Part shown: positions 1-10,268 of the stretch, piece by piece
How the letters are laid out: each line of letters opens with the position of its first letter
Position numbering within the stretch: the first letter of the stretch is position 1
Source: Candidatus Electronema aureum
GTDB lineage: Bacteria; Desulfobacterota; Desulfobulbia; Desulfobulbales; Desulfobulbaceae
NCBI GenBank assembly: GCA_004284765.1
Contig: NQJD01000057.1
Span: 1 to 10,268 of the forward strand
Direction: 5' to 3'
DNA: 10,268 nt
Position numbers and translations under genes: made by a program
Notes under the pieces: model-generated
Told to the model about the DNA's origin: nothing
Seen by the model: only the letters and a program-made list of their open reading frames with translations
Database searches by the model: none

Positions 1-1
1 A

Positions 2-151
2 GTCAAATTCATCCGAAAGCGCATCGAATCAGCATTCAGCGTCATCACCCAAAGATTTCCAGCGCATATTCATGCTGTCACCTCGCATGGCTTTGAATTG
101 AAGGTTTTTCTTTTTATCTTGGCTTACGGCATTGAAAAAACAATGTTATAG
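2..151 (+). CDS. 3' end of a DDE transposase gene entering from the left edge (IS982 / IS4-IS5-like C-terminus); partial
   Basis: The frame starting at nt 2 is open to TAG at 149-151. It reads VKFIRKRIESAFSVITQRFPAHIHAVTSHGFELKVFLFILAYGIEKTML. The block R-x-R-IE-x-x-F-x-x-I...F...HA.T..GF.LK is the conserved C-terminal signature I associate with IS982/IS5-type DDE transposases. It is absent from the ORF track because no start codon lies in the window. Confidence 0.45.
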   Translation, partial: VKFIRKRIESAFSVITQRFPAHIHAVTSHGFELKVFLFILAYGIEKTML

Positions 152-179
152 GTCACAACTTGGGTTCTGAGGTAAGATT

Positions 180-785
180 ATGCGTAAATTATTTCTAATT
201 TCTATTTTACTCCTTGCTTCAACGTCTGTCCATGCTGAGGAAAACAAGGGCGACTGGATTGCCGACGCGAAAACCGGCTGCAAGGTCTGGAATCCTGTTC
301 CTGCTTCGGATGAATCCATCACTTGGTTAGGCACATGCAAGGACGGCAAGGGGGACGGCAAAGGCTCCTTGGATTGGTATAAAAATAGCGAGCTGCAAAG
401 CACCATCACCGGCGTGATGCAAGATGGCCGCTGCGTTCAGGAATGCTCTGTCAAAACGAAGGGCGGAGACAGCTACGTCGGCGAAATGAAGGACAACCTG
501 CCGCACGGCAAAGGCAAAATCATCCGTGCTGATGGCGGAAAATATGAGGGGGAAATAAAAGACGGCGAACGGCATGGCAAAGGAACCTTTGTCGCCAAAG
601 ACGGCAGTTTGCAGGAAGAGTTGTGGGAGGCATACGGGAAGCTGCCTGCAGCTGTTCAAGAGCTGGTCGACAAAAATTTCGAGCTGCTGAAGGATGATCC
701 CTGTCATCCTTCTTTGCATCTCAAGCGCATTGAAGAGTTGTGGTCAGTGCGGGTTGGGACGGCAATATCGCGCCCTCGGCATTGA
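180..785 (+). CDS. Secreted MORN-repeat protein, 3'-truncated and fused in frame to a RelE/ParE-type toxin fragment (chimeric ORF)
   Basis: ATG at 180 is preceded by GAGGT (168-172). The signal peptide is MRKLFLISILLLASTSVHA/EE. MORN-type repeats are present: YVGEMKDNLPHGKGKII, YEGEIKDGERHGKGTFV and the degenerate WLGTCKDGKGDGKGSLDW. From about residue 145 the sequence switches to toxin-like LWEAYGKLPAAVQELVDKNFELLKDDPCHPSLHLKRIEELWSVRVG. Confidence 0.7.
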   Translation: MRKLFLISILLLASTSVHAEENKGDWIADAKTGCKVWNPVPASDESITWLGTCKDGKGDGKGSLDWYKNSELQSTITGVMQDGRCVQECSVKTKGGDSYVGEMKDNLPHGKGKIIRADGGKYEGEIKDGERHGKGTFVAKDGSLQEELWEAYGKLPAAVQELVDKNFELLKDDPCHPSLHLKRIEELWSVRVGTAISRPRH

Positions 786-854
786 CTCGCCCGACGGCAT
801 TCAGTGGATATGGATCGGCAGCTTCACGCGGAATACGACCGGCTCGTCAAGTGA
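612..854 (+). pseudogene. RelE/ParE-superfamily toxin remnant, N-terminally truncated, with two frameshifts
   Basis: The toxin sequence can be followed across three reading segments. Segment 1 (frame of nt 180) is ...KLPAAVQELVDKNFELLKDDPCHPSLHLKRIEELWSVRVG, ending at 758. Segment 2 (760-822, +1 frame) is RQYRALGIDSPDGIQWIWIGS. Segment 3 (825-854, original frame) is HAEYDRLVK then TGA. Joined, they give the canonical ...HPSL..K....WS.R.G..YRALG......W.WIGSHAEYD.L toxin C-terminus. The first 15-20 residues and any antitoxin gene are missing. Confidence 0.65.
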
Positions 855-874
855 ACACAGGCGGTAGCAACGAA

Positions 875-1915
875 ATGACAAGCTGGCAGGAAGAATTAAA
901 AAACGCTATCACCAACAGCGCAGGGTTGGCCTGTGCGCTGGGCTACGATCCGGCAGCGGCAGAGGCGATCATTGCCCGCTATCCAATGCGGATCACTCCC
1001 TATTATCTGGAGCTGATTAAAAAGGCAGGCGAGCCGCTGCGCCGGCAGGCAGTGCCGGATTTGCGCGAGCTGGAAGATCCAGTGGGCATGGAAGACCCGC
1101 TTGGCGAGGAAAACTTGAGTCCAGTACCCAATCTGGTGCATAAATACCCAGACCGGGTGCTGCTTTTAGTCAGCGGCCAGTGCGCCATGTACTGCCGTTT
1201 CTGCACCCGCAAGCGTAAGGTAGGTGGCGAGGCTCTGCGCTTCAGCGAGGAGCATTTCGTCGCCGCGCTGGACTATCTGCGTAACACTCCGTCCGTGCGC
1301 GAGGTGCTGATCTCCGGCGGCGATCCGCTGCTGCTTGCTGATGAGCGGCTGGAGGATATTCTGCGGCGACTGCGGGAAATCAAGAGCATCGAGATTATTC
1401 GCATCGGCACCCGCACGCCCTGCACCCTACCGATGCGCATCACGCCGAAACTCTGCGCTATGCTGCGTCAGTTCCATCCGCTCTACATCAACACGCACTT
1501 CAACCACCCGGCGGAGCTGACCAAAGAGGCAGAGCGAGCCTGCACATTGCTGGCCGACGCAGGCATTCCGCTCGGCTGCCAAACCGTGCTGCTGAAAGGG
1601 GTGAATGATTCTGCGGAAGTGCTGGGCAAGCTGTTTTGCGGCTTGCTGCGGCTGCGGGTTAAACCGTATTATCTCATGCAGGCTGACCTGACCAAAGGCA
1701 CCGGCCATTTTCGTACTCCGATCAAAGCCGGGCTGGAAATTATGCGCCAGCTTATCGGCACGGTCTCTGGCATGGCTGTGCCTAAATTTGTGTTAGATGC
1801 TCCCAGCGGTAAGGGAAAAATCCCGCTTACTCCAGACTACATCACCGCCATGCAAGAGGGCAGGCTGGAATTTGTCAATTTCCAAGGGCTGCCCTGCTCT
1901 TATCCCTTGGAATAA
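875..1915 (+). CDS. KamA-family radical SAM protein (lysine 2,3-aminomutase-like, short about 346 aa form)
   Basis: The radical-SAM cluster motif CAMYCRFCTRKR is present, followed by ISGGDPLL, HFNHP, VLLKGVND, PYYLMQADLTKGTGHFRT and VPKFVLDAPSGKGKIP. All are hallmarks of the KamA/EpmB family. I chose the ATG at 875 (MTSWQEELKNAI...). The track ORF start at 740 lies out of frame across the toxin remnant and is unlikely to be real. Confidence 0.9.
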   Translation: MTSWQEELKNAITNSAGLACALGYDPAAAEAIIARYPMRITPYYLELIKKAGEPLRRQAVPDLRELEDPVGMEDPLGEENLSPVPNLVHKYPDRVLLLVSGQCAMYCRFCTRKRKVGGEALRFSEEHFVAALDYLRNTPSVREVLISGGDPLLLADERLEDILRRLREIKSIEIIRIGTRTPCTLPMRITPKLCAMLRQFHPLYINTHFNHPAELTKEAERACTLLADAGIPLGCQTVLLKGVNDSAEVLGKLFCGLLRLRVKPYYLMQADLTKGTGHFRTPIKAGLEIMRQLIGTVSGMAVPKFVLDAPSGKGKIPLTPDYITAMQEGRLEFVNFQGLPCSYPLE

Positions 1916-1922
1916 GGGATGA

Positions 1923-2732
1923 TTAGAAATTACTCGGAAAATTTTCTTCAACATCAAGCTGCTGATTGATCATTACCACACTATTTTGCAGTAAACCTTT
2001 CCGCACAGCATACTTGTCATTTTCCGCTACGATATATGGCACCTGTCGTTCTTGCTCAAAGGCATCATAACCTTCTCGAAGATTTTCCCAAAAAGATATC
2101 CATTGGGAATTTTTGTTCTGTTCCATATTTTCCTTAGTCATGCGAAAGGGAAATATGTGAACGCTGAATTGTTTCTGGCCTTGAAGAAAAGCCTGATAAG
2201 CAAGTAAATAAATTTCCTCGACCTGAAGGTTACCCATTGCGAAACAACCTTGAGAAATGCACTTACCATGCACCATAATGTCGCCGCCGGTGCGCTGGTT
2301 CTCGCGATCAACTACATTGGGATAACCGATGTCAAAGGAAAGATGATATCTGCTGGCTGGATTGAGTTGGCCACCAGAAACGGTGTAAAAACCTTCTGGG
2401 CTTTGCATATCGCCTTCGCGCAACTTAGGACCAACAGACCCAGAATAGGTACAGATAGGATAAATTTTGAATAGCTCAAATTTATTTCCTTTCTGCACCC
2501 ATACTTCCATCTGTTTTGAGAGCTTGAAAATGCGGATAAATACCGGATCGCCAAGTTGTAGCCCTTTAGCTTTGAGCTGCCGCAAAACTCGAGGCTGGGC
2601 ATTGGCCATGTACGTTTCGGCCTTAGGGCTGGTGGGAGGATATCCGTCCAGCAGCTGCGCGGAGGACAAGACGGGAACAAGAAAAAAAGCCGCTCCCAGC
2701 AGGAGAGGGGCAAACAGGGTGCGGAGGCGCAT
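1923..2732 (-). CDS. yafK: YafK-type L,D-transpeptidase-fold periplasmic protein (YkuD domain)
   Basis: The signal peptide is MRLRTLFAPLLLGAAFFLVPVLSSA. By eye the protein aligns end to end with E. coli YafK: VFIRIFK, ICTYSGSVGPKLREGDMQSPEGFY, LNPASRYH, IGYPN, the catalytic MVHGKCISQGCFAM (H-G-x-C-x-S-x-GC) and IFPFRMT...FWENLREGYDAFE. Confidence 0.85.
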   Translation of the reverse strand: MRLRTLFAPLLLGAAFFLVPVLSSAQLLDGYPPTSPKAETYMANAQPRVLRQLKAKGLQLGDPVFIRIFKLSKQMEVWVQKGNKFELFKIYPICTYSGSVGPKLREGDMQSPEGFYTVSGGQLNPASRYHLSFDIGYPNVVDRENQRTGGDIMVHGKCISQGCFAMGNLQVEEIYLLAYQAFLQGQKQFSVHIFPFRMTKENMEQNKNSQWISFWENLREGYDAFEQERQVPYIVAENDKYAVRKGLLQNSVVMINQQLDVEENFPSNF

Positions 2733-2850
2733 GTCTGTTTGTTGGTGAATGTTAGGATTGATTCAGACGACCTGTTTCGCCCTAGCGTAAGCGGTTGTCG
2801 TACATTTAACCAGCATTGATCAGCAAAAGCTATTTACCGGATGGCTCTGG

Positions 2851-4005
2851 TTACAGCAATTCATCGCGTTGCTTGGATAATTTTTCTATTTTATCAGTAT
2901 CAACCTTCATGTAAATCTGAATAAATAAATCACCGAGATTGCTTCTTGTGTGCGGTATCAGCATATCATTTTCTGTCTCATACGAAGTAATAGCTCGTTG
3001 CAAATCAGCGTCATATTTTTTATCTATTTTACCGTTATAGTGATTCAACTCTTTCAACATCAGCTTGAGATATTTAATTCGTTCATGCTCATCAAGCGCA
3101 AGCCATTTCTGATATGCCGATACGGTCGCGTCAGGATTTGGCCCATCTACTGCAAAGCAAGGAGAAAAATCAATTTGCTTATATATGCCCCTAAGTGTCC
3201 ATAATACTGCGGCTTCAATCAGCGTTCGTTGTGCACCGTGTAAACCTTCTTTCAGTTTAGACTGCGCTGCAAAACTCATAGAACCTTCGCCGTAGCCAAA
3301 ACCAACAGAAAATTTGTCTGATTCAGTATAGCTATTGAGCGTCAGTGTCGTAGCGGCACCAACCGTATTTTTGAAGGCATCACCTAAATACACAGCCAAC
3401 GACAGGCTTCTTGAAGCTCTGGAAATGCCGTATTCAATTTCTGCTTGCCCATGACTGCCAGTTGTTTCTGCGCCGCTGCCTGATCCTTTATTCATGTAAT
3501 CAGAGGAATCATTTTGGGTATATACCCCTTTCACTCTGATTGCAGCTGAAGCACCGTACATTTTGGTCATATCCCGCATATAAATGGGATCAAGCATTCC
3601 GAACTTATTTTCATCCGCCAAACCAACGGGCATTGAATAAGGAATGACCATCTTTTTATGAGAGAGACTTCTTCTAATGATAGCCTCAAAATCATATTTT
3701 CCACTATCAGCCAGCGGTCCGTTTTCTCTTGCATATCTACCGGTCAATATCTTACTGTCCGGTACGACAGGAACTGTGCCATCGTAAAAATCGTCAACCA
3801 ACAGTAAGATAGCTGGAGTTTCAGATTTATTGATTTCCCGCCCCATACATTTCAAAGTTTCTGTCAGATTGGTGGAGGCAGGATGCGGTGTTTCAGCAGT
3901 AATATTGGACATCGAAGAATTAACATTAGAGCAGCCACTATTCGCAAGCAGAAAGAAGCCGCTCAAGCATACTGTTCCAATGAATATACTCCTTTGTTTT
4001 TGCAT
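2851..4005 (-). CDS. Outer-membrane lipoprotein, CsgG/HfaB-like putative secretion channel with a C-terminal helical extension
   Basis: The N-terminus MQKQRSIFIGTVCLSGFFLLANSGC/SN resembles the CsgG LLSGC lipobox, but Asn at -3 is atypical. The core follows CsgG block order by eye. ILLLVDDFYDGT matches IFVSVYNIQDETG. YDFEAIIRRSLSHKKMVIP matches ATAMLVTALKDSRWFIP. IRVKGVYTQND...GSGSG...SLSLAVYLGD...TLTLNSY...VGFGYGEG...EGLHGAQRTLIEAAVLWTL matches IMVEGSIIGYES...GGVG...AVNLRVVN...EGEVGYTSNEPVMLCLMSAIETGVIFL. No HMM search was run. Confidence 0.55.
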   Translation of the reverse strand: MQKQRSIFIGTVCLSGFFLLANSGCSNVNSSMSNITAETPHPASTNLTETLKCMGREINKSETPAILLLVDDFYDGTVPVVPDSKILTGRYARENGPLADSGKYDFEAIIRRSLSHKKMVIPYSMPVGLADENKFGMLDPIYMRDMTKMYGASAAIRVKGVYTQNDSSDYMNKGSGSGAETTGSHGQAEIEYGISRASRSLSLAVYLGDAFKNTVGAATTLTLNSYTESDKFSVGFGYGEGSMSFAAQSKLKEGLHGAQRTLIEAAVLWTLRGIYKQIDFSPCFAVDGPNPDATVSAYQKWLALDEHERIKYLKLMLKELNHYNGKIDKKYDADLQRAITSYETENDMLIPHTRSNLGDLFIQIYMKVDTDKIEKLSKQRDELL

Positions 4006-4034
4006 AGAAATATTATTGATCCGAATGCGAAAGC

Positions 4035-4062
4035 TGTATAAACAGGTTCAAACGCATGGCAA
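4035..4062 (-). promoter_or_regulatory. Possible sigma70-type internal promoter for the lipoprotein gene
   Basis: The minus strand reads TTGCCA (4062-4057), a 16-nt spacer, then TATACA (4040-4035), about 30 nt upstream of the ATG at 4005. This is a motif match only. Confidence 0.25.
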
Positions 4063-4194
4063 CCATCAGATCGGAATTTCAGCAGAAAATAAAAAAACTA
4101 CGCAAGTAGAAAAAATCAGCGTCGTTGATGTGAGTTACAAAAAAGATTTAGGATGTAGCAGCAAAACAGAATGAAGCTTATTTTCTGTAATCAT

Positions 4195-4530
4195 CTACTG
4201 GCATTCAAACACAATTGTATTGACATCAATATATTGAAAGGAATCTCCTGAGCCTTCATTGTAGTTTCCATAGAAAATACACTTGGGTTCAATCGGATTA
4301 TCAACAATGATATTTCCTTCAGGTAGCAAATACCCATTCGTTTCAGGAACTACGCTACTTTCACGGCTTTCTGCTGTATTTTGCTTAAGAACGCTATTTT
4401 TTTGATTCAGTACAGAATTTATGCTTGGATTCATCTGCACATCAGGTATGGCCACTTTTTTGATTTCTGCCGCACAAATTCCATGCCAGAGAGCGATGCT
4501 ACAGATGATGGGCATAAAATATTTCTTCAT
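4195..4530 (-). CDS. Small secreted protein (about 111 aa precursor), function unknown; candidate accessory factor of the fibre operon
   Basis: I prefer the ATG at 4530, which has AAGGTG 6 nt upstream, over the TTG at 4560 used in the track. The signal peptide is MKKYFMPIICSIALWHGICA/AE. The N-terminal half is N/S/Q-rich with the tandem NSVLNQK-NSVLKQN. The C-terminal part is compact, with two Cys (PKCIFYG and the terminal FECQ). Confidence 0.7.
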   Translation of the reverse strand: MKKYFMPIICSIALWHGICAAEIKKVAIPDVQMNPSINSVLNQKNSVLKQNTAESRESSVVPETNGYLLPEGNIIVDNPIEPKCIFYGNYNEGSGDSFQYIDVNTIVFECQ

Positions 4531-4556
4531 AACAGCACCTTGAGGCTGACAATTTT

Positions 4557-4988
4557 TCAATTGCAGGAATCGCAGCTTGTTATAACGTTAATGCCTTGAA
4601 TTCCACCGCTGGTGTTACGAGAAGTCAGCGTGACTACGCCGTTGATGATCGCCATCTGAGATATTGCATCCGCGCTGCCACGATAAATATTAACTCCTTG
4701 CACAACGTTATCTCCCTCTGAAGTTATCAGCAAAAGATCATATTCGATTGATGCAACCTGAACGGCTTTTCCGCTATAAGAAGAATTAGTGATCACGTTG
4801 ATCCCCTGAGTGCTGCTACTGTCGCTGTATGATTCTAAAGTAAGTTCACTGCCGACTTGAACACCCTGAAATAAACCTGCATCATAGGCATCTGTAAATT
4901 GATCAAAGACAGTAAAATCTGCACATACAGCTATCAACGGATTAAACAATATCCCTGCCAAGGATACGATTAGACATATTTTTACCAT
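4557..4988 (-). CDS. Secreted repeat protein, paralogue 1 (QG[IV]N-repeat protein; candidate fibre subunit)
   Basis: AGGAGG (5002-4997) lies 8 nt upstream of the ATG at 4988. The track starts one codon earlier, at the GTG at 4991. The signal peptide ends ...PLIAVCA/DF. The mature part is rich in G/S/T/V/I/N/Q and almost free of K and R. It has three units of about 20 aa: LTLESYSDSSSTQGINVIT, LLLITSEGDNVVQGVNIYRG and VVTLTSRNTSGGIQGINVIT. It ends SCDSCN. Confidence 0.8.
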   Translation of the reverse strand: MVKICLIVSLAGILFNPLIAVCADFTVFDQFTDAYDAGLFQGVQVGSELTLESYSDSSSTQGINVITNSSYSGKAVQVASIEYDLLLITSEGDNVVQGVNIYRGSADAISQMAIINGVVTLTSRNTSGGIQGINVITSCDSCN

Positions 4989-5144
4989 CACAGATTCCTC
5001 CTGGCAGTCGGGATATGCTCCGTAACGTATCCTCCTTACTCAAAGGCGACTGCGGAACATCACAACCTTGTTGCGGCAATCCTGATCCAACGACGACATA
5101 ATCCTTTAACTTGAACCATTCAGAATGGAATAATTAGATCACCG

Positions 5145-5195
5145 GACAGGAAAAAATTCGGATTACATAAGCTCCGATTTCAAGTTTTTCCTGTC
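5145..5195 (-). promoter_or_regulatory. Two-tier stem-loop 10 nt downstream of the first paralogue (possible attenuator or mRNA stability element)
   Basis: GACAGGAAAAA (5145-5155) is perfectly complementary to TTTTTCCTGTC (5185-5195), giving 11 bp. An inner 5-bp stem pairs TCGGA (5158-5162) with TCCGA (5173-5177). No U-tract follows on the minus strand, so this is not a canonical intrinsic terminator. Confidence 0.4.
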
Positions 5196-5204
5196 TCCGT
5201 CCAC

Positions 5205-5636
5205 TCATTCACAGTTTGTCCCGCAAGCGGTTACAAGGTTAATACCTTGCACAACGTCAGCACTGTTCGAGGAGGTGATAGCTACCGCACCAGTTACAGA
5301 TGCACCCTGCACCATCATTATAGGCACTTCCCCACGAAACACATTGACACCCTGACGTATTCCTGTTCCAGCACTGGTGGAAATTTCAATACCAGTATCA
5401 GCAGACACCTTTTGATGAAGCTCAGGCGAGCTTGCAAACGTGTTACCGATCACTACGTTACCGCCGAAAACGCCACTGTCGGCATAACTTGAGTCGATAG
5501 AAAGTTTATCGCCGCTGACCGCTAATCCTTGGGCGATACCCTCAACGATACCTGCGAAGGGATCGAATTCCGCCATAGCTGCTTGGGGATAAAGGGCTAA
5601 ACCTAATGCTACTGCAAAACTAATTTTTTTCCACAT
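5205..5636 (-). CDS. Secreted repeat protein, paralogue 2 (QG[IV]N-repeat protein; candidate major fibre subunit)
   Basis: AAGGAG lies 6 nt upstream of the ATG at 5636. The signal peptide is MWKKISFAVALGLALYPQAAMA/EF. The protein is colinear with paralogue 1: KLSIDSSYADSGVFGGNVVIGN, IEISTSAGTGIRQGVNVFRG and VAITSSNSADVVQGINLVT. It ends ACGTNCE. Confidence 0.8.
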   Translation of the reverse strand: MWKKISFAVALGLALYPQAAMAEFDPFAGIVEGIAQGLAVSGDKLSIDSSYADSGVFGGNVVIGNTFASSPELHQKVSADTGIEISTSAGTGIRQGVNVFRGEVPIMMVQGASVTGAVAITSSNSADVVQGINLVTACGTNCE

Positions 5637-5662
5637 GGTTATCTCCTTTTGACTAAAAAAAG

Positions 5663-5750
5663 CAAGTGAAAAGCAAAAACTTTTGCCTTTTTCTTACTTC
5701 CAGTATAAATCAACAGGCCAAGCAAATCAAGTGAAAAAGCAAAAAAACTT
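5663..5750. repeat. Pair of direct repeats in the fibre-operon control region
   Basis: CAAGTGAAAAGCAAAAACTT (5663-5682) and CAAGTGAAAAAGCAAAAAAACTT (5728-5750) are identical except for A-run lengths. Their start positions are 65 bp apart. One overlaps the putative -35 element and the other lies in the putative leader. Confidence 0.6.
5702..5730 (-). promoter_or_regulatory. Putative sigma70-type promoter of the fibre operon
   Basis: The minus strand reads TTGATT (5730-5725), a 17-nt spacer, then TATACT (5707-5702). This predicts a leader of about 60 nt to the ATG at 5636. This is a motif match only. Confidence 0.35.
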
Positions 5751-5977
5751 AATAAGATGCACCGCAAAGTAGGACTTTACGTCCTAATTGTTTCCTGCAT
5801 ATAAAAAGTTGAGTTTTTCCGCCTCTCGATAGCTTGTGGCTCTCTTCAAGAGAGTCAGCATTAGGAGTTACGCAGTTGGTAAAATCAGTCAATATCTGTT
5901 GATATTATTTGTTAAACTCCGACTAATTATAATTTCGAACAATTTCTTGAACTGGTAAAGTTTTTTGAACTTCGAGC

Positions 5978-6006
5978 TTGACAGAAACGTTTTTTTCACG
6001 TATCCT
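5978..6006 (+). promoter_or_regulatory. Putative sigma70-type promoter of the divergent DUF11-like gene
   Basis: A perfect TTGACA (5978-5983) is followed by a 17-nt spacer and TATCCT (6001-6006). This predicts a leader of about 100 nt to the ATG at 6113. Confidence 0.4.
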
Positions 6007-6112
6007 GCTAAGGAAGAGATATTTTAAAGCAGGTAGCTGGCGCGGAGGAAAGCCCGGACATAGTGTTGGCGGCGGCCAGAGTTTCCTGTTTTTCTGTTAT
6101 GGAGAAAAAACT

Positions 6113-6559
6113 ATGAAAATAACATTCCGCATTACTGCTCCGCTCTTGTTGGGCTGCGCTTTACTGGTCTCCAGTCTTGTTTCAGCAGAAGAAATGTTAA
6201 CCTGCGGTGGCGACAGCGGACATAGTCCTGCTGTCCGTAAAATTAAAGCAACGGTGGATGCACCGGGGATTGCCATTAAAACAGGCAGCGAGGCCGAACA
6301 AGATCAGTGGACGTATAACATCACCAACACTGGCAACGTCAAGCTGACTAATGTCCAAGTGACTGACGAGCGGTTCATCAAAATCAGCTGTCAGCAGGAT
6401 GTGTTAGATGTAGGTGAATCAATGGGGTGTACTGCTTCTGAGCCATCAGAAATTGCCGAGACTACGAACATGGGTTGCGCGGTTGCTGATCATGTCGTTT
6501 ACAATGAAGTTGGTGTAACCGTGACAACCAAGGGTGATTGCGTTGCCGCAATGCATTAA
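6113..6559 (+). CDS. Secreted Cys-rich protein with a single DUF11-like (TIGR01451 'conserved repeat domain') Ig-like module
   Basis: GGAGA lies 7-8 nt upstream of the ATG at 6113. The track start at 5978 is a TTG inside the promoter. The signal peptide is MKITFRITAPLLLGCALLVSSLVSA/EE. WTYNITNTGNVKLTNVQVTDE...VLDVGESMGCTAS matches the y-t-i-t-v-t-N-t-G-n-v-t-L-t-n-V-x-V-t-D...L-x-P-G-E-S-x-x-C-T-A signature. The mature protein has five Cys. Confidence 0.7.
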   Translation: MKITFRITAPLLLGCALLVSSLVSAEEMLTCGGDSGHSPAVRKIKATVDAPGIAIKTGSEAEQDQWTYNITNTGNVKLTNVQVTDERFIKISCQQDVLDVGESMGCTASEPSEIAETTNMGCAVADHVVYNEVGVTVTTKGDCVAAMH

Positions 6560-6613
6560 TCTGGTAGAATGCGCCGCAGTTAGATTGTACAGCTGAAAAT
6601 TTTGCTGCGTTCA

Positions 6614-6658
6614 AAGGGACACTTCGTTGATCAACGAAGTGTCCCTTATTTTTGATTT
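6614..6658 (+). terminator. Rho-independent terminator of the DUF11-like gene
   Basis: A perfect 34-nt palindrome AAGGGACACTTCGTTGA/TCAACGAAGTGTCCCTT (6614-6647) is followed by ATTTTTGATTT. Confidence 0.85.
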
Positions 6659-6714
6659 CAGTCTATTAAAGCCCACCTGTTTGCGCCGTAGCATTACTCA
6701 TTCTTAGATAACCT

Positions 6715-8058
6715 ATGAGCCATCCTTCCCTCCTTATTGCCGGAACCCACTCTGGTTGCGGCAAAACCACTGTCACTCTCGGCATCATGGCAGCACTACG
6801 TCAGCGCGGATTCACGGTGCAACCCTTCAAGTGCGGCCCGGATTTCATCGATCCCACCCTGCATCTATTAGCCACTGGGCAGGTCTCGCGCAACCTTGAC
6901 ATCCGCATGTGTGGCCCAGAGTACGTGCGGCAGGTCTTCGCCAACCATGCTCCGGCAACGGACGGCCCGGCTATCTCGGTGATCGAAGGAGTGATGGGCC
7001 TCTTTGATGGTGGCAGTGGCTCTGCGGCAGAGCTTGCTGTACTGCTCAAGGTACCGGTGTTACTGGTGTTAGATGTGTGTGCGGCAGCAGAGAGCGCAGC
7101 CGCTGTGGTCAAAGGTTTTGAGAGTCTTAATCCGCGCGTGCAGCTGGCTGGAGTGATCTTCAATCAGGTGGGCAGCACAAAACATCTTCAAATGGTGAGC
7201 GAGGCGGTCAAAGAGCATTGCCAAGCGGAGATCATCGGCTCGCTGCCCCGTGAAACCGGCATCAGTTTGCCCTCGCGTCACCTTGGCCTGCATCTTGGCA
7301 CTGAGGTTGCTCTCAATCAACAGCAGTTGATTAGTTTGATTGAAAAGCATCTTGACCTTGACCGTCTCATTCAGATAGCTGGAGAAGCCCAAGTTCCCGC
7401 AGTGCCGTCTATAACTCTACCATCAAAGATGATCGGAAAAGTGCGTCTTGGTTTAGCTTGGGACGAGGCATTTTGTTTTTATTATCAAGATAATTTTGAC
7501 CTGCTCACCGCTGCTGGAGCCGAGCTTGTTCTCTTTAGCCCTCTGCACGACAAGGTACTCCCAGAAAACGTAGATGGTCTCTATTTCGGCGGCGGTTATC
7601 CTGAGCTTCACGCGGCGCAGCTTGCTGCTAACCGGACGTTGCGCGAGCAAATTTTAGTCTTTTCTCGCACAGGCAGGCCAGTGTATGGTGAATGCGGTGG
7701 CTTCATGTACCTGTGCGAGGCAATTGTTGATAACGAAGGCTGCCAGCAACCAATGGTCGGGGTTTATCCAGTAATCACCCGCATGAGTCAGCGACTACGG
7801 CGACTGGGCTACTGCGAGGCAGAGCTACGCGAAGACAGTTTGCTTGGCTCGGCTGGCAGCGTTCTCTACGGTCACGAATTCCATTACTCCGAGATTGACC
7901 CCATGCCTGAGCAGGTGCGGCGCATCTACACGCTCGATGACGGCAGAGCTGAGGGCTATTTGATCAACAAAACCTTAGCCGGGTATGTCCACCTGCACTG
8001 GGGCAGAACCCCGGAAGCAGCGAAGCAGTTTGTTCAGGCGATGGTTGATAATTCATAG
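6715..8058 (+). CDS. cbiA: Cobyrinate a,c-diamide synthase (glutamine-hydrolysing)
   Basis: The N-terminal ATPase region is LLIAGTHSGCGKTTVTLGIMAALRQRGFTVQPFKCGPDFIDP, followed by EGVMGLFDG. The C-terminal glutamine amidotransferase region includes YGECGGFMYL and GHEFHYS. At 447 aa the length is typical of CbiA/CobB. Confidence 0.93.
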   Translation: MSHPSLLIAGTHSGCGKTTVTLGIMAALRQRGFTVQPFKCGPDFIDPTLHLLATGQVSRNLDIRMCGPEYVRQVFANHAPATDGPAISVIEGVMGLFDGGSGSAAELAVLLKVPVLLVLDVCAAAESAAAVVKGFESLNPRVQLAGVIFNQVGSTKHLQMVSEAVKEHCQAEIIGSLPRETGISLPSRHLGLHLGTEVALNQQQLISLIEKHLDLDRLIQIAGEAQVPAVPSITLPSKMIGKVRLGLAWDEAFCFYYQDNFDLLTAAGAELVLFSPLHDKVLPENVDGLYFGGGYPELHAAQLAANRTLREQILVFSRTGRPVYGECGGFMYLCEAIVDNEGCQQPMVGVYPVITRMSQRLRRLGYCEAELREDSLLGSAGSVLYGHEFHYSEIDPMPEQVRRIYTLDDGRAEGYLINKTLAGYVHLHWGRTPEAAKQFVQAMVDNS

Positions 8059-8226
8059 CAGCAGGCCATAACGAACGAAGAAGTATTGAGAAAATACAAG
8101 AGGCTGCCACAAGGAGACTTTTTTTTATTGCTAATCTTACGCAATCCCGGTAGTGGTAAAGATGAAGTATTTTTTAATTGGTCGCATCTCGGCCTTTCAG
8201 CTATCTCCTGCGGAGGACAGGAAATC

Positions 8227-9195
8227 ATGATTGAATCTATCGGTAGCCCGGTCTTGTATCTTGGCTTTACCCTACTTGTCATCGTCTTGCTGGCGGTTGA
8301 TTTCGTCGCTCTCAGAGTTCAAGGAAATCACCGGGTGAGCGTGAAGGAAGCGGCAGCTTGGTCAGCGGTATGGATTGCTATTTCGCTCGTGTTTTGCGGT
8401 GGCTTTTGGTGGTATCTTGATAGCAGCTTTGGGCGGGAGATTGCTAACAAAAAGGCTCTGGAATATCTCACCGGTTATCTGATTGAGAAATCGTTGGCGG
8501 TCGATAATGTCTTCATCTGGATTACCTTATTTGGTTTTTTCGCGGTGCCTCCCGCCTTCCAGAAGCGAGTGTTGCTGTACGGAGTGCTGGGTGCCATTAT
8601 AATGCGCGCTGTGCTGATTTTCATCGGGGCGATGCTGCTCGCCAAGTTTCATTGGATTTTGTATATCTTCGGCCTCTTCCTTGTACTAACTGGCGTAAAG
8701 ATGCTGATTTTTTCTAGCCACGAGCCTGATCTGGAGCAAAATCCTCTTCTGCGCTGGATGCGCGGTCACATGAAGATCACCAATGAATACCACGGAGAGC
8801 AATTTTTCGTACTCAAGGAAGGTGTGCGTTACGCCACTCCGATGTTCGTTGTTCTGATGTTGATCGAGGCAACAGACTTGATCTTTGCAGCCGATTCAAT
8901 TCCTGCCATCTTTGCTGTAACCAACGACCCCTTCATCGTTTTCACCTCCAACATTTTCGCCATCCTCGGCTTGCGAGCCATGTATTTCCTGCTTGCTGAT
9001 ATGGCAGAGCGTTTTCATCTGCTCAAGTACGGGCTGGCAGTCATCCTGATGTTCATTGGCGTGAAGATGTTACTGCTTGACATCTATAAAATTCCGGTTG
9101 GAATCGCCCTTGGCATTGTCGGACTGATTCTGGCATTATCCATTGCGGCCAGCTTCATTACCTCGCGCAGTGCCGATACAAAGAACGAACACTAA
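8227..9195 (+). CDS. alx: TerC-family integral membrane protein, Alx-like (putative Mn2+/redox-linked exporter)
   Basis: By eye the protein aligns along its full length with E. coli Alx: FWWYL, LEYLTGYLIEKSLAVDNVF, VPPAFQKRVLLYGVLGAI, ATDLIFAADSIPAIFAVTNDPFIVFTSNIFAILGLRAMYFLL and ERFHLLKYGLAVIL. The ATG at 8227 (MIESIGSPVLYLGF...) matches the Alx N-terminus and follows GGAGG (8212-8216). The TTG at 8086 in the track is an in-frame upstream artefact. Confidence 0.9.
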   Translation: MIESIGSPVLYLGFTLLVIVLLAVDFVALRVQGNHRVSVKEAAAWSAVWIAISLVFCGGFWWYLDSSFGREIANKKALEYLTGYLIEKSLAVDNVFIWITLFGFFAVPPAFQKRVLLYGVLGAIIMRAVLIFIGAMLLAKFHWILYIFGLFLVLTGVKMLIFSSHEPDLEQNPLLRWMRGHMKITNEYHGEQFFVLKEGVRYATPMFVVLMLIEATDLIFAADSIPAIFAVTNDPFIVFTSNIFAILGLRAMYFLLADMAERFHLLKYGLAVILMFIGVKMLLLDIYKIPVGIALGIVGLILALSIAASFITSRSADTKNEH

Positions 9196-9207
9196 AATTC
9201 TTCCCGA

Positions 9208-9242
9208 GGCAGAACCAGCAGCTTGCTGTTCTGCCTTTTTTT
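9208..9242 (+). terminator. Rho-independent terminator of alx
   Basis: GGCAGAAC (9208-9215) pairs with GTTCTGCC (9228-9235) around an internally paired loop. A T7 run follows (9236-9242). Confidence 0.8.
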
Positions 9243-9436
9243 ATATTAGACCTCTTGCATAAGTGAAACAGGACTTACGCAAAAGTCATATGGATAGCAG
9301 GTGACTTGAGTTGCTGCTTCAAATAGTCAGACAATAATCCGTGCTTGAGACGATAAACCGTCTGCTTGGTTTCATTGGCAACTTGTTTCAGACTTCAGAC
9401 GAACCCAGACCAGAATCGCACAGGCAATGTGATTGC

Positions 9437-9496
9437 GGACCTGATTTAAACCCGATAGAAAAATTTTGGGCTTCCATGAAGGCAAAAGTCAAGTAC
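9437..9496 (+). pseudogene. IS630/Tc1-mariner-family transposase fragment (C-terminal catalytic-E motif only)
   Basis: The translation GPDLNPIEKFWASMKAKVKY contains the highly conserved (S)PDLNPIE-x-x-W-x-x-[LM]K block of IS630-family DDE transposases. Neither the upstream nor the downstream sequence continues the family pattern, so only about 20 codons survive. Confidence 0.55.
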
Positions 9497-9514
9497 CACC
9501 GGCAGAGCCGGTGG
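9496..9514 (+). repeat. GC-rich palindromic hairpin unit, copy A
   Basis: CCACCGG-CAGAG-CCGGTGG forms a 7-bp stem with a 5-nt loop. The loop and core are identical to copy B. Confidence 0.6.
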
Positions 9515-9690
9515 CTTGCGGTTGCTGGCCCCTCAAAGGGGCCTGATCGCAACCGGAAGTGCTGCATGACGGGGAAATCTCTTTGCACCCGACAGGGCTT
9601 CATAACCAAGAGGGAAAAGCGGATATACGCCGTCATGCCACCACCCCAATTGCAAAAAAAATATTCCCGGAACTGTCAAACTTCGGGAGT

Positions 9691-9709
9691 CCCCCGGCAG
9701 AGCCGGGGG
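9691..9709 (+). repeat. GC-rich palindromic hairpin unit, copy B
   Basis: CCCCCGG-CAGAG-CCGGGGG differs from copy A at one stem position on each arm (A->C and T->G), so pairing is preserved. On the plus strand it is followed by TTTACTTGTTT. On the minus strand it is followed by a second weak hairpin (9687-9666) and a U8 run (A-run at 9654-9661). It may therefore act as a terminator for the toxin-antitoxin operon. Confidence 0.5.
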
Positions 9710-9777
9710 TTTACTTGTTTAAATTAAAAAAATAGCTGACGGCATCAAGAGTTTAAGCGTTTGCGTCGAGACGGTGT

Positions 9778-9987
9778 TCAAGACGATCTAAAAACTGAAG
9801 CACTATAGTCGCCGATGCGGACACGGTAGAACGTGTCATATCCTTTTAGCTTCTTCACTTGGCTGATCTCGGTCAGGCTTTCCGCCTCTTTACAGGCAAG
9901 CAGCAGCTCCTTGACCGCTTTCAGCAGTCTGCCGTTGCTGACCTGCTTCAGGTCTTTCGCAAACTTGGCCTCAAACCGGACGTTCAT
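9778..9987 (-). CDS. RelE/ParE-family type II toxin, apparently C-terminally truncated (69 aa)
   Basis: MNVRFEAKFAKDLKQVSNGRLLKAVKELLLACKEAESLTEISQVKKLKGYDTFYRVRIGDY matches the ParE_toxin/RelE pattern (F.K.LK...KKLKG....YR.RIGDYR). After GDY the frame gives SASVFRSS and a stop, so the usual 25-30 C-terminal residues are missing. The +1 frame reads IVLQFLDRLEHRLD, weakly like the expected V.F.R.LHR.D tail. Confidence 0.7.
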   Translation of the reverse strand: MNVRFEAKFAKDLKQVSNGRLLKAVKELLLACKEAESLTEISQVKKLKGYDTFYRVRIGDYSASVFRSS

Positions 9988-10193
9988 TCTGCCGCCCGGT
10001 CAAGAAGTGAGAGAACTTCCTCCTCTGAGACGAACTCGTTCTTACAGCCTTCGGCAATGGCGTTGGCTAAACCGACTTCCTCCAGAGCCTCCATTAAGAT
10101 GTCCCGGATCAGGTCGCGCTTGGTGCGGAGCAGCTCAATCATCACTTCGGTGAGCAGCTCCTTGGTCTTGTCATCGCTGATTGAAAGTTCCAT
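9984..10193 (-). CDS. Putative cognate antitoxin of the RelE/ParE toxin
   Basis: This is a 69-aa acidic, helical protein (MELSISDDKTKELLTEVMIELLRTKRDL...AIAEGCKNEFVSEEEVLSLLDRAAE). Its TGA stop overlaps the toxin ATG in an ATGA overlap (9984-9987), the classic type II toxin-antitoxin arrangement. I did not recognise the family. Confidence 0.65.
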   Translation of the reverse strand: MELSISDDKTKELLTEVMIELLRTKRDLIRDILMEALEEVGLANAIAEGCKNEFVSEEEVLSLLDRAAE

Positions 10194-10268
10194 GCTGGTT
10201 ATGCTGGTTGAATGTCCTTGGTGATTTTCATGCCCCTTGCCTTCCCTTCTGGCTCTGCCGCGCCAGCA

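Follow-up and report, generated by a model that had tools for sequence, protein, structure and literature searches.

The window analysed here, a stretch of 10,268 nucleotides from Candidatus Electronema aureum (assembly GCA_004284765.1, contig NQJD01000057.1, positions 1 to 10,268), carries on its minus strand a head-to-tail set of four genes coding, in this order, for subunit A, subunit B, a small accessory protein and a lipoprotein. Subunits A and B and the small protein share the same kind of ending, a Cys residue followed by one last residue. Our reading, held with moderate confidence, is that the genes form a curli-like fibre cassette and that the terminal Cys residues are disulfide cysteines of two kinds, not a sorting signal: one kind would staple the fold of the small protein, and the other, carried in a lineage-specific tail, would cap or link the subunits of a probable amyloid-like fibre. 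Cable bacteria conduct over centimetres by means of fibres in their envelope and, whatever the role of the fibre proposed here, the cassette provides a concrete and testable candidate for a structural protein of these organisms.

A four-gene cassette encoding cysteine-ended exported proteins

An earlier note, made from the letters of this DNA, had drawn attention to the shared ending, and the codons bear it out: A ends with ACGTNCE, B with SCDSCN and the small protein with VFECQ. The tail of A reads C138-G-T-N-C142-E143, that is, CxxxC plus one residue (Cys138 is encoded at 5223-5225 and Cys142 at 5211-5213), and that of B reads C140-D-S-C143-N144, or CxxC plus one residue (codons at 4572-4574 and 4563-4565); as the note had also stated, the two tail Cys are the only ones in the mature part of either subunit. 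A and B are paralogues (35% identity, E 2e-16), so that there are two independent families with a Cys ending, not three; the observation of a Cys at position -2 in three exported proteins is thus correct for the ending and overstated where it speaks of three different proteins. Their placement among the exported proteins of one operon, together with a channel-like lipoprotein, agrees with what we found: the subunits, the small protein and the lipoprotein all carry signal peptides, cleavage being predicted after AMA in subunit A, and the predicted fold of the lipoprotein is CsgG-like (see below). Between A and B no terminator was called on the minus strand, where the fold was no better than that of shuffled sequences (z = -1.1). 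Each of the four proteins has one conserved Cys pair in its mature part (residues 138/142 in A, 140/143 in B, 84/110 in the small protein and 53/283 in the lipoprotein), which, judged from sequence, would be the usual signature of periplasmic disulfides.

Positions 867-8241 of the window are 94.6% identical in DNA sequence to a contig of the freshwater cable bacterium Candidatus Electronema nielsenii F5, and the gene order A, B, small protein, lipoprotein recurs in other Electronema and Desulfobulbaceae genomes as well as in the marine genus Electrothrix; the cassette was found in every named cable-bacterium match, from both genera. The subunit family is very small, with 32 clusters at E<1e-3 in a profile search of 1.84 billion representative proteins. 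Most of the 41 homologues of the lipoprotein are metagenome sequences, one of them is distant (23% identity), and every one that comes with an organism name belongs to a cable bacterium of one or the other genus. Searches of Pfam and NCBIfam returned no family for the subunits or for the small protein, and profiles of the subunits, the small protein and the lipoprotein had no meaningful match among PDB sequences, a match of the subunit profile to a designed helical repeat protein being judged spurious. A search of the available papers found neither a description of the cassette nor a paper connecting cable bacteria to curli, CsgG or functional amyloid.

The penultimate Cys is invariant in the small protein

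The open reading frame of the small protein spans 4195-4560; translation most likely starts at the ATG at 4530, preceded by an AAGGTG ribosome-binding site. Two conserved parts, the N-terminal segment EIKKxxIPDV..PSLxSV and a C-terminal domain, are joined by a variable linker; this layout is CsgF-like, and the protein would be an accessory one. The C-terminal domain holds the penultimate Cys110 (4201-4203) and also a second mature Cys that is absent from the earlier note, the invariant Cys84 in EPKC[VI]FYGNYN (codon 4279-4281). We tallied the endings over the non-redundant sequences from all loci and searches, comprising 82 unique subunits and 35 unique small proteins. A Cys at -2 is present in 35 of the 35 small proteins, including the distant ones of Neisseria type (...IKGCH, ...IKGCF, ...IKGCN; see below). 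Both Cys are invariant in 24 aligned sequences, and the partner Cys occurs in the motif [EK]P[KRT]C[VIA]FY in every small protein inspected. The last residue, in turn, varies: Q, E, N and D are found, and also K, R, L, P, F and H. Since the partner Cys84 is invariant, the simplest role of Cys110 would be an intramolecular disulfide, separate from the subunit tail, and the suggestion that the Cys of all three proteins serve a common function is not sustained. A short segment of the small protein and one of the subunits look alike by eye (FQYIDVNTIVFECQ and IQGINVITSCDSCN); the idea that the small protein mimics a single rung of the subunit was dropped, as hhalign detected similarity of the signal peptides only.

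The Cys tail of the subunits is common but evolutionarily labile

A Cys tail is found in 54 of the 82 unique subunits and is absent from the other 28. The tails comprise 24 of the form CxxC plus one residue, 19 Cx4C plus one, three Cx3C plus one, three with a single Cys plus one, and five in which at least two residues follow the last Cys. Thus, a C-x(2-4)-C directly follows the third predicted rung of the subunit (see below) in 51 of the 82 sequences, with a single Cys at -2 in three more, and the last Cys stands exactly at -2 in 49 of the 54 tailed subunits. This conservation of the terminal Cys is beyond chance. E, N, Q or D closes the chain in 47 of these 49 subunits and in 30 of the 35 small proteins, but the last residue varies between lineages (K, R, L, P, F, H and Y also occur), so that the '[NEQ]' of the earlier note is a clade-level preference. 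Alignment of homologues therefore upholds the terminal Cys, without exception in the small protein and frequently in the subunits, but not the invariance of C-[NEQ]. The three single-Cys variants (...GPQCN, ...GSLCN, ...GSMCN) retain precisely the -2 Cys in a mature part that is otherwise Cys-free; with no intramolecular partner at hand, an intermolecular one is implied, which makes the disulfide staple between subunits that had been proposed a reasonable reading.

The tail-less subunits end right after the last beta-strand (...NVITSD, ...NLVTR). Their stop codons are genuine, since a ribosome-binding site and the start of the next gene follow them, and this rules out a frameshift or a TGA read as selenocysteine as the source of these variants. 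On a neighbour-joining tree the presence of the tail switches at least 11 times, by gain or loss. Within an operon the tail may be absent from A, from B or, once, from both (locus L024). We considered whether at least one paralogue per operon always retains it; the counts (both in seven operons, A only in three, B only in six, neither in one) fit independent loss, and we make no claim of complementary retention.

Subunits A and B are predicted to be three-rung beta-solenoids

An AlphaFold2 model of A (predicted local distance difference test, pLDDT, 82, with a core above 90) has nine strands, which we read as three beta-solenoid rungs of three strands and about 35 residues each; the tail is unstructured in the model (pLDDT 54). 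Each rung of A bears a Q...QGxNV motif. In the subunit alignment N60, Q75, Q95, N98 and N133 are invariant and Q36, Q110 and Q130 nearly so, and these residues form the ladders Q36/Q75/Q110, Q95/Q130 and N60/N98/N133. Foldseek returned no significant match for the model; its weak neighbours are beta-solenoids, first the FapC fibril (E 6e-3, probability 0.35), then ice-binding beta-helices, with the CsgA fibril in ninth place.

A second motif, FDPF/FDQF, lies at the mature N-termini (window 5556-5567 in A and 4902-4913 in B) and is nearly invariant in the A-type alignment. Like the N-terminal segment of CsgA, to which it is analogous, it may serve to target the subunits for secretion, and it is a better candidate for this than the Cys tail.

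In Ca. Electrothrix yaqonensis YB6 (CP178758, L008:2938-6573) the subunit gene forms a tandem array of seven copies that repeat every 537 nucleotides; six of the seven encode identical proteins of 141 residues ending in NACEGCQ, and the array is followed by one B-type gene with a single Cys (...GPQCN). According to its description, the ridges of this strain are threefold wider and extracellular sheaths are abundant. The sevenfold amplification is consistent with a bulk structural protein, and because of it we presume that A is the bulk subunit.

The lipoprotein is a probable outer-membrane platform tied to peptidoglycan

The best Foldseek match of the AlphaFold2 model of the lipoprotein, a mediocre model with a pLDDT of 67.5, is CsgG (4uv2; E 5.7e-5, probability 1.0, TM-score 0.45 by target and 0.28 by query), with HpaA, FlgT and PelC, which have the CsgG-like fold, scoring close behind. 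Two conserved segments of low model confidence show an alternating hydrophobicity as in amphipathic beta-hairpins. The C-terminal helical domain matches PG_binding_1 in 22 of 28 family members. Cys53 and Cys283 (codons at window 3847-3849 and 3157-3159, respectively) are invariant, also in the Neisseria-type proteins, and probably form a disulfide between the first helix and the hinge that precedes the C-terminal domain. On the strength of the model, the lipoprotein is a probable outer-membrane secretion or assembly platform tied to peptidoglycan.

A homologous cassette in Neisseria

Distant matches of the subunit profile led to a homologous cassette outside the cable bacteria, in Neisseria animaloris, Neisseria zalophi and one metagenome contig (L025:7001-9341, L027:5001-6788 and L028:2106-4580); the two Neisseria cassettes comprise the hypothetical proteins WP_107879492 and WP_151051689 and their neighbours. 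Its subunits match the family profile at E values between 1e-4 and 1e-7, its small protein matches the small-protein family with an hhalign probability of 95.4% and its lipoprotein the lipoprotein family with one of 99.3%; by these sequence comparisons the homology is true. The genes stand in the order seen in the cable bacteria, and the conserved Cys are retained: both of those in the small protein, with the one at -2 among them, and the pair in the lipoprotein. In contrast to the cassette of the cable bacteria, there is a single subunit gene, whose product has no Cys and no Cys tail, the lipoprotein has about 300 residues and lacks the peptidoglycan-binding domain, and a further (fourth) lipoprotein of about 180 residues, with the motif LPMIGQYGN.DSTGLG, follows. 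The Neisseria cassette is uncharacterised and gives no functional information. In N. animaloris a thioredoxin-like lipoprotein is encoded about 1 kb upstream of it.

Two proposed kinds of disulfide and the alternatives

On the sequences, export signals, conservation, synteny and predicted folds described above we infer the polymerisation, the channel function and each of the disulfides in the following scheme. A and B would be solenoids of three beta-rungs in which Gln and Asn stack into ladders, and an amyloid-like filament would probably arise from them by end-to-end polymerisation, with export and assembly handled by the small accessory protein and the peptidoglycan-tied, CsgG-like lipoprotein. 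In the small protein, Cys110 would pair with Cys84 and so staple the last beta-strand, apparently an old structural feature extending from Neisseria to the cable bacteria. The subunit tail, C-x(2-4)-C-x in five to eight residues, would project from the solenoid at its open C-terminal end, the presumed docking site for the next subunit; it may form a small disulfide loop, exchangeable into disulfides between neighbouring subunits or protofilaments, and the variable spacing of its Cys (2, 3 or 4 residues) fits such a loop better than a fixed chelate. These disulfides would cap or covalently staple the fibre, as has been proposed for the CXXC of FapC, and the tail would modulate assembly and stability without being needed for secretion. 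As to its biological role, it is more economical to see the fibre as an extracellular sheath or a surface fibre than as a scaffold of the conductive fibres.

Several points weigh against this scheme. The disulfides, the fibre and the channel are all predicted, on the basis of sequence and AlphaFold2 models; the TM-scores with CsgG are low (0.28/0.45, from a model of pLDDT 67.5) and the non-pore proteins HpaA, FlgT and PelC score nearly as well; and neither the E. coli proteins CsgA, CsgF and CsgG nor FapC showed any sequence or profile similarity to the proteins of the cassette. A plain structural disulfide leaves unexplained why a single residue follows the Cys in 35 of 35 small proteins and in 49 of 54 tailed subunits; this ending could mean that a free carboxylate beside the thiol matters, as part of a chelate or in docking to a common pocket. 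The loss of the tail in a third of the subunits, and in both paralogues of L024, makes a stapling role dispensable. Moreover, part of the range that cable bacteria span is sulfidic, and exposed disulfides may be reduced there.

A docking role for the shared ending has a low chance of being right. Through exchange with the disulfide in the small protein or in the lipoprotein, the -2 Cys of a subunit would enter a mixed disulfide that ties the base of the fibre covalently to the secretion platform, and the 'Cys plus one residue' ending would reflect a docking geometry in common. This would account for the same ending in two unrelated protein families of one cassette and for the need of single-Cys subunits for an intermolecular partner, and it agrees with the CsgF-like layout of the small protein and with the invariant Cys pair that the lipoprotein has as well. 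However, the Neisseria-type small proteins keep their Cys pair beside subunits that have no Cys, so that the small-protein disulfide needs no subunit partner; tail-less subunits are frequent, and the interaction itself is hypothetical.

We give a smaller chance to the view that the tail is a ligand, in which one or two terminal thiolates and the adjacent free alpha-carboxylate bind a metal, or in which the Cys covalently cap the sulfur-rich nickel bis(dithiolene) oligomers of the conductive fibres, whose protein scaffold the subunits would then be. Among sequences with an organism name, the Cys-tailed version is restricted to the cable bacteria, in both genera, within a family of no more than 32 clusters, its Neisseria-type relatives having no tail, and the length past the last Cys is fixed at one residue. 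In addition, the protein components of the conductive fibres are still unidentified according to the literature, the fibre sheaths resist SDS (sodium dodecyl sulfate) and EDTA (ethylenediaminetetraacetic acid), are not alpha-helical, are rich in sulfur and may hold many disulfides, and nickel bis(dithiolene) oligomers have been modelled as capped through S-S bonds to cysteine. Taken together with a Cys-tailed, amyloid-like subunit that has so far been seen only in cable bacteria and is amplified sevenfold in YB6, the strain with the wider ridges, this makes the subunits a legitimate scaffold candidate. Against a ligand speak the variable Cys spacing (CxxC, Cx3C, Cx4C or a single Cys) and the 28 of 82 subunits without a tail, once in both paralogues; the lack of His or other typical Ni ligands, and of metal-handling genes in the cassette; the homologous cassette in Neisseria, which is not known as electroactive; the invariant partner that the -2 Cys of the small protein has; and the periplasmic location of the conductive fibres, since a CsgG-like outer-membrane channel would suggest export to the cell surface. 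We see only a slim chance that the Cys-tailed subunits form the SDS-resistant protein scaffold of the conductive fibres, or their insulating shell or cartwheel, with Cys-X-COOH attaching nickel bis(dithiolene) nanoribbons covalently or by coordination. On that assumption a curli-like cassette of older origin, which Neisseria still has, would have been taken over by the cable bacteria, which would have equipped it with the Cys tail and the peptidoglycan anchor and amplified the subunit gene.

Finally, a C-terminal signal for sorting, recognition or processing, with the channel or a dedicated enzyme as its reader, is very improbable and, for the subunits, largely refuted: the extreme C-terminal position is strongly conserved, the last residue is usually polar and an enzyme adjoins the cassette (a YkuD transpeptidase in Electronema, an omptin-like protein in one Electrothrix genome), but these enzymes differ between the genera, the motif is followed by neither the hydrophobic helix nor the basic tail of known C-terminal sorting domains, the N-terminal FDPF/FDQF is the better targeting candidate, and the natural tail deletions (28 of 82 subunits, with at least 11 gains or losses), found beside the same highly conserved lipoprotein, argue against a recognition tag for the channel, a possibility that the earlier note had raised.

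Neighbouring genes

The features of the window are listed in Table 1. Downstream of the cassette, a YkuD-type L,D-transpeptidase gene is present in 7 of 7 Electronema/Desulfobulbaceae loci examined (L001-L006 and L031) and in 0 of 3 Candidatus Electrothrix loci; the enzyme is a possible member of the system. In some loci a gene for a rhodanese and metallo-beta-lactamase fusion sits between the cassette and the YkuD gene (L004:10675-11841). In Ca. Electrothrix sp. GW3-4 (L007:1-6324 and 9182-10162) murB-ftsQ-ftsA-ftsZ and a radical SAM gene encoding 580 aa immediately precede the cassette, and a gene for an omptin-like outer-membrane protein follows the cassette in place of that for the YkuD transpeptidase.

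Table 1. Features of the cassette and its surroundings, in window coordinates
Feature	Position	Strand	Remarks
Subunit A	5205..5636	-	143 aa; open reading frame and translation; 'paralogue 2' of the earlier note; ends ...LVTACGTNCE
C-terminal Cys tail of A, CGTNCE	5208..5225	-	Codon coordinates; directly after the last predicted beta-strand
Subunit B	4557..4991	-	144 aa; 'paralogue 1' of the earlier note; ends ...VITSCDSCN
C-terminal Cys tail of B, CDSCN	4560..4574	-	Codon coordinates; commonest B-type ending among the loci
Small accessory protein	4195..4530	-	111 aa from the ATG at 4530; signal peptide; ends ...VFECQ
Lipoprotein	2851..4005	-	384 aa; lipobox Cys25; N-terminal CsgG-like predicted fold; C-terminal divergent PG_binding_1
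YkuD-type L,D-transpeptidase	1923..2732	-	Pfam match; downstream of the cassette, same strand
Secreted 193-aa protein	5978..6559		Divergently transcribed; DUF7507/DUF11-type repeat; several Cys
Transposase remnant	9341..9727	+	DDE_3 (IS630-type)
RelB-like antitoxin gene	9984..10193	-	Small partner open reading frame at 9778..9987 (-)

Comparison with known systems

The proteins end one residue past the Cys, and NCBIfam gave no match to the C-terminal sorting domains PEP-CTERM, GlyGly-CTERM, MYXO-CTERM or LPXTG. Nor do the tails resemble a thioredoxin-type CXXC, as the model of the subunit is all-beta, the Cys pair lies in an unstructured tail and the spacing ranges from 2 to 4. The statement of the earlier note that no signal of this form had been described is partly right; a described analogue exists in FapC, the functional amyloid of Pseudomonas. 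The secreted FapC folds into a beta-solenoid of three layers, built from its three imperfect repeats, and has a paralogue as minor subunit. Past the third layer its chain runs straight into a flexible tail with a conserved CXXC (CTVCAAGTGSKLAF), which may form intermolecular disulfides in the early oligomers and is considered to promote fibrillation; fibrillation is slower once the tail is deleted.

The likeness of the cassette to Fap lies in a predicted three-rung subunit with a paralogue, as with FapC and FapB, in a short G-[VI]-N-[VI] repeat core common to FapC and our subunits, and in a Cys pair after the third layer, the last of which is an analogy only. Although FapC is present among the PDB sequences, the subunit profile did not find it there at E<=10, and hhalign of this profile against FapC gave a probability of 0.2% (with a FapC sequence rebuilt from PDB alignments and a paper, in which two short gaps were filled with X). 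Unlike in Fap, the platform is a lipoprotein with a CsgG-like predicted fold, the tail stops one residue past the Cys, where FapC runs on for ten more, and there are no long linkers between the repeats. The open reading frames of the window operon had no Pfam match to a FapF barrel or to a FapD C39-type protease, no explicit comparison with FapF or FapD having been made.

The likeness to curli lies in major and minor paralogous subunits with Q/N ladders, a small periplasmic accessory protein and a probable outer-membrane lipoprotein whose predicted fold best matches CsgG, as well as in the CsgA fibril among the weak structural neighbours of the subunit. No Curlin_rpt repeat (S-x5-Q-x-G-x-G-N-x-A-x3-Q) was matched in Pfam at E<=1, the repeat here being of about 35 residues with Q...Q-G-x-N-V, and the lipoprotein had no Pfam match to CsgG (PF03783). 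Comparisons by hhalign with the E. coli proteins gave probabilities of 1.7% for the subunit profile against CsgA, 0.6% for the lipoprotein against CsgG and 0.4% for the small protein against CsgF; CsgE and CsgC were left out of the comparison. The rungs of curli have about 22 residues and two strands, and those predicted here about 35 residues and three strands. Curli subunits are not known to bear a C-terminal Cys tail, and the lipoprotein of the cassette differs from that of curli in bearing the extra PG_binding_1 domain.

Thus, the cassette resembles curli and Fap in its gene logic and predicted folds and, given the negative profile comparisons with CsgG, CsgF, CsgA and FapC, it is a member of neither family. 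If our reading of an ordinary fibre with disulfide cysteines is true, it would represent a third lineage of bacterial functional-amyloid systems beside curli and Fap, present also in Neisseria, in which a lipoprotein with a CsgG-like fold is paired with FapC-like, three-layer subunits.

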